64,000 nucleotides of DNA from Lama glama. Its lineage: Eukaryota. This document shows, in pieces, positions 18,561 through 60,180 of this stretch. How positions within the stretch are numbered: the first letter of the stretch is position 1; every line of letters starts with the position of its first letter. The notes under the pieces were generated by a model that did not search any database, had not been told where the DNA came from, and worked only from the letters and a program-made list of their open reading frames with translations. The stretch is from NCBI GenBank assembly GCA_028534125.1, contig CM052846.1:682001-746000 (forward strand), written 5' to 3'. Position numbers and translations under genes: made by a program.

Positions 18561-19199
18561 TGGCAGTACTGTGACAATGTGGCTAAACGTGGCTCCCCTA
18601 GTTTTTGGCCTTAGGGGTCTGGTTTCATCTTTGATTTTCAGTGGGAAATGGAGTATTTCTTGAAGTGATGCAGAGGAATGAGCTTCTTACGTCTCAGGCT
18701 TACACGTGCACATTTAAAAAGCTCCGCCCACTTTTTACCGCCAGAGACCTCGGGTAGCCCTGCGCTCCTCTCGGGATGGGGCAGAGCAGGAACTCTGGGC
18801 GTTGGACACCAATCTCGGGGCGGTCGCCTTCTCAGGCACCCTCAGTTGCCTGCAACCCCTTACTCTAGGCTGGATCCGCCGGGGGCTCAGAGCAGGCACT
18901 GGCGGGCACTGCTGCCGGCCAGGCAGGGTTGTGTCTGCCCGCCCAGCCCTGTAACTGCCCGGCAGTGAGCTTTCACTGTCTCAGACAAAGGTAGTAATTT
19001 CAGTCGTGACCAGAGTCAGGACAGCATGTGACCTTGCTGGGTGGCCTCAGACCCGGGCTGTAGATGGAGCAGCTGCAAAGAAGCAGGCAGCAGGTCCGGA
19101 CGCACTTGTCAGTGCTCGGCCCCACCCAGCCGCACACAAACAGTCTGTCGCCGGAGGTGAGCGGGTGCCCTCCACGATCCAGACTCTGAAGAAAGTCAA

Positions 19200-19510: not shown

Positions 19511-21270
19511 GCCAACTGGAGTAAGTCTGTCCCGTGAGTTCTCAGTGAACAACACTAAGTAAGTCATGTGGAAATTCTTCAGCATCTGTCAGGTGTTCTT
19601 TTTCATCTGATGGAAGCAGAGCTTACATAGACCATCTTGTGTGTCGTGGTCTCTTCCCCAGCATGGGTCCAAATTCCCACCAGCGTTACAACTTGATCTA
19701 AGATGCTCACTGCTTTTTATAAAAATGAATATTTTAGAGAGGGGACAACGCATTGTTTAGTTTTATGCTGATGAGGGAAGAGTCCAGTGTGCCTGAAGCT
19801 CAGAGGTGGGGCTCTGAACTGGCTAATGACATTCACGCTCCAGGACAAGAGTCACAAATGCTTCTTATTTGCGGTGGTGCAACAGAAACACCAGGATCTT
19901 TCTTTGGGGCCGGTTCACGCTTTGCCCTTAGTCATTAGTAAGATGGCCTTCTCCGTCAGGAGAACAGGGAGTCGGTCAGTTGCTGTCGGCATCAGGCCTT
20001 GGCCTCGGTTCGGACTTCCTGTACCTTCTTGAGCTATGCTATTGCGAAAAGAGCCGTGAACCGTGAGTCAGAACACCTGGGTTTACGTCCTGGCTCTGCA
20101 TGGCCTTGGAGCTTCACTTCCTTGGGTCGGATGCAATCTGTCCCTGAGTGGTTCTGAAAGAATTCAGTGATGACGCGCAGAGAACAAGAGCAGTTCTGCT
20201 GTCTCCTCTCCTTCTTCCTTGGTCCTCCCTCTCCTGCTCAGTGTCAGAATCCTCAGGTCTAAAACCATCCTCTAGGCAAGTAAGAGAGAATGTGACCAGC
20301 GGGTTGATTTTTTAAGTCTTTTAATGAATTGCATTTGCTGAAAAGTCTCCATTCCGCTTAATGGGTGATCCCAAGGTGGGAAAAAAAAAAAAGACAAAGT
20401 GGCAAAACGGATTCAAAATCAGGCAACTGGAAGAGCCGTCGAAGAAATTTTTATACCCATCCAGTTTAGCTCCGGGCAGACAGCGCCAAACAGCGCCTGC
20501 TGTGCGTGGTGCCTGGGTGCAGACTCAGCACTGCCACTGGGCTTTCAACGCGGTTTAAAATGCATTTGGTACGTTTTCCATTTAGCTGGGAGATCTGGAA
20601 GATGAAGGGGCATATGTGTTCCGTTATCGCAGACAGGCTGCACGTGGGGATTGTAAATCCCAGGACCTGCCCAGGTCTGGCAAGGAGGGAGGGAAGGCGT
20701 ATGTCCCAGCGTCTTTCCTCAGGGGCTGCTGGCCGAGGCAGACACAGTGACGTCCCTGAAAGGGCAGGGGCTGACAGTTCTCTGTTCCTCCTGTCCTTCA
20801 CTCACCTGCCCTTGGCCCTCCTAGACGCTCACCCTGCTCCCGAGATGCCGGTGCAGGATGCCCGCTGCAGAGAAGGGGCGGGAGGCGGTGCTGAGCCGCG
20901 TGTGGTGGCGGGGCAGGATGCACCCCGCCGGGACTCGCTCAAGCTGGGGACGTTGATCCATCAAAGATACATGAGGCAAAGAGCCCTCCGCTCAGGCCTG
21001 CTCTCAAGAGATCTTTTATTCTAAGAAACTCAGTCTCCTTTTTCCCGCCGAGAAAACAAAATGTCTGAAAGAGCGGTCTCTTTGCCCACGTCTGGAAAAC
21101 TGTTTGCAGATTGTCTGATTTGGGGAAAAAAACAAGACTGATTCCGTGGTATTTTTTTTTCTTAATCTTGCTCATTATGAACTACCCTCTTGTCTGTCGT
21201 ACTGTCAGCATCATAGTAACTGCTTTCTAAGGCCAACGTTCATTTCTGTGTATTTACACTCAACTTTGTT

Positions 21271-21442
21271 TCTTTTAAGAATTTTTGTTTCCTTTTTTTT
21301 TTTTTGGCCCAAAGTCAATGACCTAGAATGTAAAGAGGTCTGAGACCTATTCAAAAATTTTAAAAAGTACAAAGAATAATTTTTTTAAAAGATTGGAATG
21401 AAACCAAACCCCTAAGATTCATATAAAGCAGAAATAGCTTTG
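21271..21442 (+). repeat. Donor copy of a 172-bp local duplication
   Basis: Identical to 23429-23603 except for 3 substitutions and poly-T length (13 vs 16). Confidence 0.95.
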
Positions 21443-22479
21443 TCTCCCAGCTGCCCATCACCTTATCAAAACCGGGGTGAGAGAAGTTCATAGATGCATT
21501 ATTTGAATGTGACTTACAAGCCTGGCAATCTGTTTCCTAGGAACCCGCGTGCAGGTGGCTGAGCAGGATGATTTCCCCCGCCCAGCGTCTGTGGGTCCAC
21601 AGCAACGTCTTAAGAAAAGACATAATATCCTTCACTCCTGCCCTTGAGTGACAGCTGATGAGAAATAGAGTCCCAGACACCGGTGGCTGGCGGTGCGGGC
21701 CTCCCCCACGCGTCTCCCAGGTTATTAACAGCCGTCAGTCCCAGGTGGGGGTCTCATCAAGTATCAGCGTGTTTTCCTAAGAGGGGACGGGCCCAATATC
21801 GCCTGTGAAGGATTAGCCCTTCCCTCACCCCAAGAAAAACAGAACTGAAAACAGAAGGAGACCCTTTCCCGGCCCTGGGGGTGCTTTGTGGGAGCCCCGT
21901 CAGCGGAGGAGAGGGGTCACCCAGGCACAGTGCTTGCCCAGGCAGGCGGTGCCCCCTGGGTTTAAAGGCAGCCCCAGAGGGACGGATGACGAGGACCCAC
22001 CTGGGTGAAGCCCGTCCCTCCTGGGCGTTGGATGTGCCCCGGCCGCGTGGGAGCTGGCGTGGGAGAAAGACGAGCACAGGGACACGTGCCGAGAGACCGC
22101 TGGGGGGGCCGGGGGCGTGCGCTCCAGGAAAGCCCTGCTCCCCAGCCACAAGGCAGAGACAGGGATGGATATTTGCCCAGGGACACTGAGCTTCCATCCG
22201 AGCCACAGGGAAGGGACGCCAGCTCCCGTGCCAGGGCGCGTGGCTTGTTTTCGGCCATTGCACTGCACGTGGCACAGCAGTGTTCTGCGGGGGTTCCTGC
22301 ACATGTGTGCTGTTTCCTCACCCACGACCCGGAACGAGGCTCAGCGGTCTCTTTCCTGCAGAGCACAGACTGACCGAGGGAGGAGGACTGTACTCCTCAC
22401 CCTTGACCCGGAGACCAGATCCCCGGGCTGGGCCGTGACGTAGCTCCTTACTTTGGGGCTGTCCCAAACCCTTTATGTG

Positions 22480-22600
22480 TGTCATCTCAGTTCCTCCTGC
22501 CAACAGACACGCAGGGGGGTGTTGTCATGACGGTTCCCACCTCCCAGATGAGGAACCTGAGGGTTTGGGAAGTCAGATAACTGCCTGACAGCGTGAAGGC
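22480..22600 (-). mobile_element. MIR SINE fragment
   Basis: cccacctcccagatgaggaacctgagggtttgggaagtcagataactgcc resembles the antisense MIR core. Confidence 0.7.
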
Positions 22601-23294
22601 GATGACGGCACAGCCCCAGACCCCCCGGCCGGCGTCTGTGCTCCACGCCTCCCTGCCCCTAGCGCCGAGCCTCACTGGCAGCACCCCAGGGAGACGCTCT
22701 TGCACGGCCGGGTGCCCACCTGACTCAGAGCCGGGAGCGGGGTGTCAGGGAAAGAGAAAGAACCCTACAGATGATCAGAGCCGGAAGCTACTACCTTTGA
22801 GGTCAAAGTCACCGTCACATTTAATGGAGGAAGAGGAATCTGGGCCCAGGATGGAGAAGACATAGGTTGTTCCAGATCACGTGACAAACTTGTTCAGAGT
22901 CCGACCTCCTGACTTTCAGGCCCTTCTCGAAACACTGCACTGCCTTCCTTGCACGGCAACCCAGTTTATGCCTCAAGAAGAATGTGGCATCACCCACAGG
23001 GCCTGTCACCTCTGTTTCGTGCTCGGAGCCTGAGTGACCCGACGAGGTGCAGAGCTCACGGTGTGGCAGCGCCGGGCGGGGGCAAAGCACCGGTCACGCC
23101 TTTTCTGAGCCTGGTGGGTATGAGGCTTCCTTGCTGTCACGCGGGCATGGTCACAGATCCTCACTGCTGAGGACACACATTATCCTAAGCTTTCTGCTCA
23201 GTGGAGGATGTGCGCTCCAGAACCCGAAACGCAAAATTTACCTTTCTTAATCCCGTCCTTGTCTGTTGGCCTTGTGTTGCCTTAATGGGCCAGC

Positions 23295-23642
23295 CAGGGT
23301 TTTCAGCTTCAGCACCACTGGCGTTTAGACTGAGTGACTCTCTCCAGTGTGGCCTGTCCTGTGCCTGGTGGGAAGTTATTAGCTGCCCGGCCCCTGCTCA
23401 CTAGATGCCAATAGAAGCCCCGCCCGAGTCTTTTAAGAATTTTTGTTTCCTTTTTTTTTTTTTTTTGGCCCAAAGTCAGTGACCTAGAATGTAAAGAGGT
23501 CTGAGACCTATTCAAAAATTTTAAAAAGTACAAAGAATAATTTTTTTAAAAGATTGGAATGGAACCAAACCCCTAAGATTCATATAAAGAAGAAATAGCT
23601 TTGAGTTGTGTCGGGCACGCTGCTCCTGGTTGAGAACCGCTG
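23295..23642 (-). mobile_element. MER20 (hAT-Charlie) DNA transposon interrupted by a 175-bp insertion
   Basis: Termini cagggttttcagc and ggttgagaaccgctg. Internal ctgtcctgtgc...cactagatgccaatag...agttgtg matches the MER20 reverse complement. Confidence 0.85.
23429..23603 (+). repeat. Inserted copy of 21271-21442 within MER20
   Basis: Near-identical direct copy. gagt is present at both junctions (23426-23429 and 23603-23606). Confidence 0.95.
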
Positions 23643-24530
23643 GGCTGGAGGCTTCCCGAGAGTGAGCACCGGGCATCCTGTCGCTCTCTGTCCCCGTCTC
23701 ACTTCCTTCGGTTCTGAAACAGAAGGGCTGGGTGACGTGAACACTGACGTAGCTTGCTCTCTCAGATACGGTGTCATGTCTCCTCCTCTCGGTCTGGTCT
23801 TCCCCTGCTCGGCGATGCTGTGTGACAGGGACAAGTCAGGGATGCGTCCTGGGCACCGCCGAGGGGGCCTTTTTACCAGGTGTGCTAAGTGAAGGGCCCC
23901 CTGGGCACAGATGCTGCCGGAAAGACTCCGCAAAGCCTTTTCCCCGCCTGGGTGATTCGTAGGAGGAGTTCCACTGCGTATTTAACACATAGTTTCAACC
24001 ACTGTGTAGAAGTGCCGGCTTCGATAGCGTGAGAGATATGAGGATTAATTAAGTACGGTCTCTGTCTCAAGGGGTCTGAAAATCCACTGAAGGTGCCACA
24101 TTCGTATTCAATCCACAGAAGAGAGTAAATGCAGATCTGAGGAGAGCCTGGCAGGCGCTCAGGGTAGACTCATTACGGAAGAGCCAGGCCCACGGGTGAA
24201 GTGACTTCTCACCGGGACACCGGCGTTTCGGCTTTGCCCCCTGGACGGCCCTGGTGCAGAGAGTTCCGACCCGGCCGTGGGGCAGCAGCCTGCAGGGCCC
24301 TTCCTCTGTCTTCCTTGAGGTGTGCTAGGCTGTTGGCTGCAATTTTAGTAGGAAGGATTAAATTTTCATTCTGAATTCTTGGACGAAAGTCTGACAATAG
24401 CCCATCAAGTCAATGTGCAGCCAGATGTCTGTGTGCCTTTAGTCTTACAACTTAGTGATGTATGTCCACCTGGAAGAATTAACAACCTTCTAAAGACTAG
24501 GTCTGGAAAGAGAGGTGCGTGTTAACTCAC

Positions 24531-47773: not shown

Positions 47774-48273
47774 NNNNNNNNNNNNNNNNNNNNNNNNNNN
47801 NNNNNNNNNNNNNNNNNNNNNNNNNNNNNNNNNNNNNNNNNNNNNNNNNNNNNNNNNNNNNNNNNNNNNNNNNNNNNNNNNNNNNNNNNNNNNNNNNNNN
47901 NNNNNNNNNNNNNNNNNNNNNNNNNNNNNNNNNNNNNNNNNNNNNNNNNNNNNNNNNNNNNNNNNNNNNNNNNNNNNNNNNNNNNNNNNNNNNNNNNNNN
48001 NNNNNNNNNNNNNNNNNNNNNNNNNNNNNNNNNNNNNNNNNNNNNNNNNNNNNNNNNNNNNNNNNNNNNNNNNNNNNNNNNNNNNNNNNNNNNNNNNNNN
48101 NNNNNNNNNNNNNNNNNNNNNNNNNNNNNNNNNNNNNNNNNNNNNNNNNNNNNNNNNNNNNNNNNNNNNNNNNNNNNNNNNNNNNNNNNNNNNNNNNNNN
48201 NNNNNNNNNNNNNNNNNNNNNNNNNNNNNNNNNNNNNNNNNNNNNNNNNNNNNNNNNNNNNNNNNNNNNNNNN
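47774..48273. other. Assembly gap (exactly 500 N)
   Basis: Run of N. Confidence 0.99.
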
Positions 48274-57906: not shown

Positions 57907-59649
57907 TTTTCACTTTTTTTTCCATGAAATAATTATCACAATGAATTTAGTGAATATCCATCATCTGATAGAGATACGTAATTAAAGAAAGAGAAAAAGG
58001 AGTTTTTGTGCACATGAGGAGAACTCAGGATTTACTTTTTTAACAACACAGAGCAAACAGTTGTGTTTATCATGTTAGTCACGCTGTGCGTGACGCCCCT
58101 CGTGCTCACATTACACCTGCAAGTGCGCACCTTGCGACCACCTTCATCAGTTCCCGCTTCCCCTGCCTCCCACCTCTGGTAACCGCAGATCTCGTCTCTT
58201 TTGCTATGAGTTTGTCTGTTTGTTTGCTTTGAAGCATGATTGCCCTGCAGCACTACGTTAGTTCCTGTTACTCAATGTAGTGACTCGACAGCTGTGTTCA
58301 TTTCAAAGCGATCACCAGGGTCCGTCCAGTTATGATCCGTCACCACACAGAGATGTCACATAGCCATTGGCTGTGTTCGCCACACTGTGCATTTCACACC
58401 TGTGACTCGTGGATTTTGTAGCTGGGGGTCTGTGCCCTTGATCCGCCTCACCTGTTTCCTTCCTGCCTCTCCCTCCTCCCTCTGGCAACCACTTGTCTGT
58501 GCTCTGTCTGTAACTCTGTTTCTGTTTTGTTGTTTGTTTGCTGTGTTTTTAGACTCCAACGTATAGGTGAGGTCATACAGTGCCTGTCTTTCTTGGGCTG
58601 GCTTGCTTCATTTGGCATAATACCCTCCAGGGCCATCCATGTTGTTGTAAATGGCAAATGTCACTCTTTTTCATGGCTGAGTAGTATTCCATTGTGTAAT
58701 ACACCACATGTCGTCTCTGGCTGTTCACCTATTGATGGGCACTTGGGTTGCTTTCATATCTTAGCTTTTGGAAATGATGCTGATCCACGGAGCTGTCTCC
58801 TCACCTCCGCCCAGTTTCAGGGCATCAGGGGCCCCGGGGGCTCACCTGCCCCCTGCCCCCAACTTGTCAGCAGCCACCGCATCTTCCAAAGGGAACATAG
58901 GGGTACATGCATCTTTGCTAATTAGTGTTTTTGTTTTATCGGGAAAAATAACCAGAAGTGGAGTTGCTGGATCCTATGGTAGTTCTACGTTTAATCTTTT
59001 GAGGACTCTCCATGCGGTTTTCCGTAGCGGCTGCACCAGTTTACATTCCCACCAAAGCGCAAGCGGGTTTTTCCCCTACATCCTCGCCAGCAGTCACGTG
59101 TTGTCCTTTTGCTGGTAGCCGCTCCGACAGCCACGCGGTGGCATCTTCACTGTGCTTTTCATTTGCGTTTCCCTGATGATGCTGAGCATCTTGTCCCGAG
59201 CTCGTGGGCCATTTGTGTGTCTTTTTTGGTGAAACGTCTGTTCAGAGTCTCTGTCCATTTCTAAATCAGGCGGTTTGGTTGTCTGATGTTGAGTTGCATG
59301 AGCTCTTTGTGTATTTTGGATACTAACCCTTCATCAGATACGCCGTTTGCAAGTATCTTGTCCCATCCCGTAGGTGGCCTTTTCGTTCTAGGGGTGGTCT
59401 CCTTCTCTGTACAAAAGTGTGTTAGCGTCATTAGGGCCCGTTGGTTTGGTTTTGCTTTTGTTTCCCTTGCCTGAGGAGACAGAGCCAAAAAAAAATATTG
59501 TTAAGACCAGAGTCAAAGAGCGTCCTGCCTTTGCTTCCGTCTTGAAGTTTTATGGTTTCAGGTCTAAGATTTAAGTCCTTAATCCCTCTTGAATTTATTT
59601 TTGTTCGAGATGTGAGAAAGGAGTCCATTCTGATTCTTTTGCATGTAGG
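57907..59649 (-). mobile_element. 5'-truncated laurasiatherian-type L1 (ORF2 3' part + 3'UTR), interrupted by a 104-bp insertion
   Basis: ggctgagtagtattccattgtg, gttgctggatcctatggtagttct and tttcccttgcctgaggagacaga. Probable TSD tgccgtttta (57897-57906) / tgacgtttta (59650-59659). Confidence 0.9.
58785..58888 (+). repeat. Inserted copy of 60073-60180 within L1
   Basis: ccacggagctgtctcctcacctccg...cagcagccaccgcatcttcca, roughly 85% identical by eye to 60073-60180. Confidence 0.92.
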
Positions 59650-60072: not shown

Positions 60073-60180
60073 CCACGGAGCCGTCTCCTCACCTCCGTCC
60101 GGTTTCAGGGCATCAGGAGTCCCGGGGGCCCACCTGCCCCCCCAACCCCCCTGCCTCATCAGCAGCCACCGCGTCTTCCA
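60073..60180 (+). repeat. Donor copy of the 104/108-bp local duplication
   Basis: ccacggagccgtctcctcacctccg...cagcagccaccgcgtcttcca in unique sequence next to a CpG island. Confidence 0.92.

Follow-up and report, generated by a model that had tools for sequence, protein, structure and literature searches.

A 172-nt segment copied from nearby DNA into an old dispersed element of the llama genome: a probable repair-mediated duplication

The window, the whole stretch of 64,000 nucleotides of Lama glama DNA that was analysed, contains two direct copies of a short segment, one of which lies within the remains of a dispersed element (Table 1). The copies are 2158 nt apart from start to start, with 1986 nt between them, and they match each other with an E value of 8e-78 in a self-BLAST of the window. 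The coordinates given for them in the preliminary description, 21271-21442 and 23429-23603 in direct orientation, proved exact, and alignment bore out its further statement that they differ by three substitutions and in the length of their poly-T run. The substitutions (A at 21318 against G at 23479, A at 21401 against G at 23562, and C at 21429 against A at 23590) give a divergence of 1.9% between the copies, and none of the three lies at a CpG.

Table 1. Features of the duplicated segment and of the element that it interrupts (positions in the window)
Feature	Position	Strand	Remarks
Donor (template) segment	21271..21442	+	172 nt; 27% G+C (surroundings 40-59%); without CpG; T-run of 13 at 21293-21305
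Host element, left part	23295..23429		element positions 1-138 of 214; ~26% diverged from the family majority
Target duplication, left copy	23426..23429	+	GAGT at most, AG at least; last T is also the donor's first base
Acceptor copy	23429..23603	+	175 nt; same orientation as the donor; 3 substitutions; T-run of 16 at 23451-23466
Target duplication, right copy	23603..23606	+	GAGT; first G is also the donor's last base
Host element, 9-nt piece	23604..23612		element positions 136-144; 8 of 9 letters are those of the family
Site of 39-nt gap in host element	23612..23613		element positions 145-183 missing
Host element, right end with terminal inverted repeat	23613..23642		element positions 184-214

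A search of the same genome with 133 nt of the segment returned two matches from two candidates, the donor and the copy; as the search skips very common words, a copy number of two is in principle a lower bound. With a 651-nt query one extra match was obtained. This 39-nt match, 92% identical to the donor's left end, is of low complexity, takes in 10 nt that lie outside the duplication and has no extension, and it was rejected as a third copy. Comparison with the genome and within the window also showed that the donor flanks were not duplicated along with the 172-nt segment. The preliminary description had allowed that the segment might be a multi-copy mobile element. Only two copies were found in the genome, no terminal inverted repeat was found in the insert and it has no tail, and this reading was discarded. 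Within the donor, 21398-21416 forms a 19-nt inverted match (95%) with 18610-18628, 2.8 kb upstream, which may be due to chance or may be a small inverted templated piece.

The element split by the copy is presumably MER20. Its family was recovered with a query consisting of one genomic relative of the DNA left of the copy, which gave 40 scored matches of 1131 candidates. Alignment and a profile of 20 copies from the same genome yielded a dispersed 214-nt majority element with inverted ends, whose copies are 73-83% alike. The host is thus a short, dispersed, non-coding and old element with terminal inverted repeats; MER20 is listed among the DNA transposons in PMC5753468. The profile matched the left part of the host at 23291-23424 (E 5.8e-19), and 33 of 129 columns in this part depart from the family majority. 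The right end alone was a weak match in the profile search (E 0.4); the right remnant as a whole, 23604-23642, outscored 5000 of 5000 random 39-mers of the window. The 8 nt flanking the element on either side are not identical, so that its own target duplication is unrecognisable. The insertion falls at element positions 136-138, where the paralogs are continuous, in agreement with the earlier claim that the copy splits the element, and the roughly 40 bp said to be lacking to the right of the insert turned out to be 39 nt, starting 9 nt from it.

The donor is unrelated to the host family: in two comparisons, 276 and 34 of 500 shuffles scored equally well. When gap extension was made nearly free, bits of the insert could be aligned to the missing middle of the element. 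This was dismissed as overfitting: shuffled sequences do as well as the donor, and a gap of at least 100 was opened in no more than 4 of 20 such alignments.

Nineteen public runs from 8 studies each hold 0.91-0.95 of the window's words, and there is therefore no distant relative among them. Contigs of four of these runs, one for each of the organism labels A-D and from 3 studies, were compared with the window. The same four contigs were found around the repeat in every run: one containing the left flank up to the repeat start, a repeat contig of 130-131 nt, an intervening contig of 2088 nt that begins at 21371 and extends into the beginning of the copy, and a right contig that begins at 23532 and crosses the right junction, covering 72 letters on the shorter side. 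These values agree with those calculated (130, 2088 and 23532) for a repeat that carries these substitutions and is truly present twice. In all four runs the letters at 21401, 21429, 23562 and 23590 are those of the window, the copy-specific letters at 23562 and 23590 are joined to the right flank, and the contigs show no gap relative to the window at the 39-nt gap site, so that this gap is common to all of them. At the left junction the coverage is 30 letters on one side, one below the bridging rule. None of the four runs listed a joint that would mark an empty allele or the loss of the 2.16 kb between the copies, in contigs that drop rare variants.

Because all four runs show the graph of a two-copy repeat, the insert is neither a misassembly nor a new private variant: it is real and inherited. 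Misassembly had been named in the preliminary description as a point to be checked with long reads; both copies are supported here by short-read contigs, not by long reads, and the assembly itself may have been built from one of the four runs. The genome is fragmented (1,072,352 contigs), and the collapsed repeat contig has a depth 1.0-1.2 times that of the contig between the copies, below the 1.57 predicted from 57 shared of 100 words, although depth is no measure of copy number and a long T-run lies in this stretch. Such an artefact would have to place both junction neighbourhoods in the contigs of four runs from 3 studies and to create copies that differ at three sites, and we regard its probability as negligible. 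Two further observations were made on these contigs. Position 22900 is C in all four runs and T in the window, a variant or an error private to the assembly. In each run one other contig matches both 21011-21031 and 23989-24007, on opposite strands and with the matches about 11 letters apart, which suggests that these are remnants of another family of inverted-repeat elements.

All 20 host paralogs are continuous at the insertion site, with no insertion as long as 15 nt in any of them. In the window, 175 nt separate element positions 1-138 from positions 136-214, both in the same orientation. The left part of the host has diverged from its family by about 26%, against 1.9% between donor and copy, and the element is therefore much older than the duplication. 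Since the downstream copy interrupts an old dispersed element and the donor is unrelated to the family of that element, sequence comparison establishes that copying ran from the upstream donor to the downstream acceptor, and the copy inside the element is the derived one, as had been proposed. The pre-insertion sequence is given here by the host-family majority, from which the host copy itself is about 26% diverged; comparison with a family consensus is the fallback used by Pace et al., and by that comparison the element was uninterrupted before insertion. No empty allele was found among the contigs of the four public runs compared, out of the 19. One metagenome contig with an exact pattern match was considered as an outgroup allele and rejected as a chance hit, since it shares only 23 nt with the window.

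The host family carries the motif GAGT once, and the window has it on both sides of the insert. Because a 4-nt duplication and both 1-nt overlaps with the donor would use the same letters, the target duplication is best given as 2 nt (AG) to 4 nt, according to how the two shared letters are assigned. The AG cannot be supplied by the donor flanks. When donor positions were drawn at random from the window 100,000 times, 6.4% of them gave overlaps of 1 nt at both ends; the overlaps observed are at chance level and therefore, taken alone, no evidence of microhomology. The preliminary description had reported GAGT at both junctions together with 1-nt overlaps: the letters are as it stated, but the two features cannot both be counted in full.

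Gaps of at least 30 nt are absent from the 20 host paralogs, and gaps of 17-19 nt occur in three of them. By rough arithmetic, an unrelated gap would lie this close to the insert in 1-3% of cases. Despite this estimate we put the odds that the 39-nt gap arose in the same event as the insert at about even, because selecting the paralogs by score gives an advantage to copies without gaps, and because the host copy is strongly diverged. The 9-nt piece left of the gap (23604-23612) shares seven of nine letters with the donor's end region at 21436-21444, 7 nt upstream of the junction. A likeness of this order has a null frequency of 3.8% at the right end (20,000 draws, with the length chosen after looking) and of 71% at the left end, and is probably due to chance. 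It was not counted, because the length was post hoc and because pairing at that place would have left only a single version of the two.

Insertions that interrupt a transposon and match a single donor at another place were described as repair-mediated duplications (RDs) by Pace, Sen, Batzer and Feschotte in 2009 (PMC2671141). In human they counted 824 proximal RDs, with a donor under 5 kb away, a mean length of 162 bp and a peak in distance at about 1.2 kb; 753 of 1136 RDs lay under 3 kb from the donor. The cow genome yielded 202 and that of the dog 192. Of the 39 proximal junctions inspected there, all lacked a poly(A/T) tail and 6 showed a target duplication. The present insert is of at least 50 bp (175 nt, near that mean) and lies between same-orientation parts of one transposon. 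Its sequence occurs at exactly one other genomic site (two matches from two candidates), whose flanks were not duplicated and whose distance, 1986 nt between the copies, falls within the range from 50 bp to 5 kb. It has no added poly(A/T) tail, and it is not a nested transposon, a retrogene or an L1 transduction. Short target duplications and deletions at the acceptor are also described for RDs, which are found in non-primate mammals, although camelids are not among the genomes that PMC2671141 describes as surveyed. In its structure the locus is thus a new RD, an ordinary scar of a class that has long been known. The 172-nt locus itself was not found in print, in literature searched on the class, the rival mechanisms, camelid dates and MER20 rather than on the locus.

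Two details of the junctions differ from the RDs of PMC2671141 and count against the proposal made below. Exact microhomology is 1 nt per end, which is below the 2-9 nt reported there and which chance alone gives with the frequency stated above; and the 39-nt gap exceeds the junction deletions of 1-15 nt and is set 9 nt off the junction without touching it. Pace et al. also required the transposon parts on either side of an insert to lie within 30 consensus positions of each other, a detection filter rather than a biological trait. The parts overlap here by 3 positions if the 9-nt piece is counted, and are otherwise 46 positions apart. Doublets (Thomas et al. 2004, via PMC2671141) are similar in being short, local two-copy duplications that have been proposed to come from imperfect break repair. 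They differ in that the surveys cited in that paper concern near-identical pieces under 100 bp, for which it gives no polarity.

We propose, with a probability of about 0.82, that a single germline repair event copied nearby DNA into the host element, that is, that the locus is a repair-mediated duplication in the mechanistic sense also. The two copies, the direction, the 2-4 nt duplication, the 39-nt gap and the presence in four runs are observed, and from them we infer the following course. A 3′ end within the element, with its last base at 23428 or 23429, would have paired 2.16 kb upstream with little or no homology, on the same chromatid, the sister or the homologue, and would have been extended by about 172 nt. 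The extended end would then have been released and have re-entered the element 2-4 nt short of the place where it had left, giving the short duplication. One more slip in the same event probably produced the 39-nt gap 9 nt further on, the alternative being an independent deletion. Drift would finally have carried the allele to fixation or to a high frequency, and its evolution over roughly 4-6 My would have been neutral. Pace et al. explain RDs by a synthesis-dependent strand annealing (SDSA) model (PMC2671141). The product here would fit strand invasion from a double-strand break as well as a switch at a stalled fork. The suggestion in the preliminary description of germline break repair from a nearby template is supported; the choice between a synthesis-dependent route and template switching cannot be read from the junction.

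Insertion by polymerase theta bears some resemblance to this course. Its templated insertions (TINS, PMC7165422) are primed with little or no microhomology, use A+T-rich templates and involve several rounds of synthesis. The first-round tracts described there are rarely longer than 10 bp and come from the flanks of the break, against 172 nt from 2 kb away here, so that TINS could explain no more than the 9-nt piece and the gap.

An RNA template would leave much the same trace as the DNA template that we favour, since an unspliced RNA has the same sequence. A nascent local transcript would in that case have been reverse-transcribed into a nearby break without L1 endonuclease, in the manner of class 2 TSIs. 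Class 2 TSIPs (Onozawa and Aplan 2016, PMC5110952) are patches of similar size at presumed breaks, lacking poly(A), long target duplications and an L1 site, and range from 73 to 414 bp with a median of 191. The inserts described there came from distant regions, not from nearby DNA as the 2.16 kb here would require, and they are polymorphic, whereas an empty allele was seen here in none of four runs, whose contigs drop rare variants. Nor did Pfam and Rfam matches point to a gene or transcript in the window, which is a weak negative confined to sequence matches; we consider an RNA-templated patch unlikely. Retroposition of the minus strand driven by L1 and primed near its internal A-run is highly improbable. 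The last 35 nt of the minus strand of the insert are indeed A-rich with an A13 run, but this run is already present in the donor, 22 nt inside its end. The insert has no added tail, no AATAAA or ATTAAA on either strand and no TTTT/A-like L1 site at either junction, and its target duplication is 2-4 nt only, which sustains the earlier argument against L1 from the lack of a terminal poly-A and a long target duplication. The three marks that define class 1 TSIPs, a target duplication of retroposon size, poly(A) after a signal and a TTTT/A target (PMC5110952), were accordingly not found.

Meiotic cut-and-paste would dispense with copying. Two close SPO11 cuts would free a fragment that was ligated into a SPO11 break 2.2 kb away, fill-in of 2-nt overhangs would yield the AG duplication, and the 39-nt gap would be a microdeletion at the same hotspot. 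Inserts of this kind are germline in origin (10.1101/2020.06.23.168138, 10.64898/2026.02.11.705388), and those of the first study measure 15-349 bp, have 0-2 nt of microhomology and arise from cuts with 2-nt 5′ overhangs, which agrees with the smallest reading of the duplication here; the region is also G+C- and CpG-rich (observed/expected 0.53-0.63). Both papers describe donors at other hotspots and inserts within double-cut deletions, the local ones being inverted. According to the second the cuts lie no closer than about 21 bp, against the retained piece of 9 nt here, and most of the data come from ATM- or MRE11-deficient mice. We find this reading quite unlikely, with the overhang and microdeletion taken together with it. 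If it were true, the locus would preserve a trace of meiotic cut-and-paste from a wild lineage, and part of the mammalian RDs would be captures of meiotic fragments rather than copying events. Two events could also lead to this arrangement, with both copies in direct orientation: a tandem duplication of about 2.16 kb from the donor start to the element followed by a deletion that spared only the first 172 nt. One deletion end would have to fall within 4 nt of the duplication junction among some 2000 possible places, which makes this course very unlikely; tandem duplication and deletion in a single event would be the repair-mediated copying of our proposal under another name.

At the rate applied in PMC2671141, 2.2e-9 per site and year, 3 substitutions in 159 sites would date the duplication to 4.3 My (95% range 0.9-12.5). 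A rate of 1.5e-9, close to the 1.4e-9 implied by PMC7331169, would give 6.3 My (1.3-18.4). A rough age of 4-6 My, with a range of about 1-18, is suggested by these counts. The split between Lama and Vicugna is placed at 2-3 Mya, with much hybridisation, in PMC7331169. If the four run labels correspond to the four South American camelid species, the event would predate that split. The description of the event as relatively recent thus holds only on a scale of millions of years, all four runs carrying the insert with two of the three substitutions in place.

No Pfam match above the cut-off was found among 23 long open frames (one match fell under it), nor among 131 exon candidates out of the 195 obtained with a crude splice-site score, and Rfam gave no match in the 64,000 bases of the window. 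The locus may still contain an intron or short exons. Nothing in the sequence points to a function of the insert, which would appear to have none that is known. The window includes a run of 500 N at 47774-48273, and the long open frames across this run are artefacts.

On its own the locus means little, as mammalian genomes carry hundreds of such scars inside transposons alone, by the counts of PMC2671141. It does provide a clean, polarised presence/absence character, which could mark a clade, and its junction, with a step back of 2-4 nt and a skip of 39 nt, would add one data point to the question whether local duplications in the germline arise through more than one slip. As a direct repeat, the 172-nt segment might also permit deletion of the intervening 2.16 kb; such an allele was seen in none of the four runs.

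A second and older local duplication is present in the same window. About 105 nt at 58785-58888 derive from 60073-60180 on the same strand, some 1.2 kb away. These copies are 83% identical and G+C-rich, have two occurrences in the genome, and differ from the pair described above in that the donor lies downstream. The acceptor is an A+T-rich relic (about 58506-58994) that we take to be L1-like; a related relic has approximately 14 nt at the place where the window has about 120. A second RD-like case within 64 kb thus indicates that the class is common.
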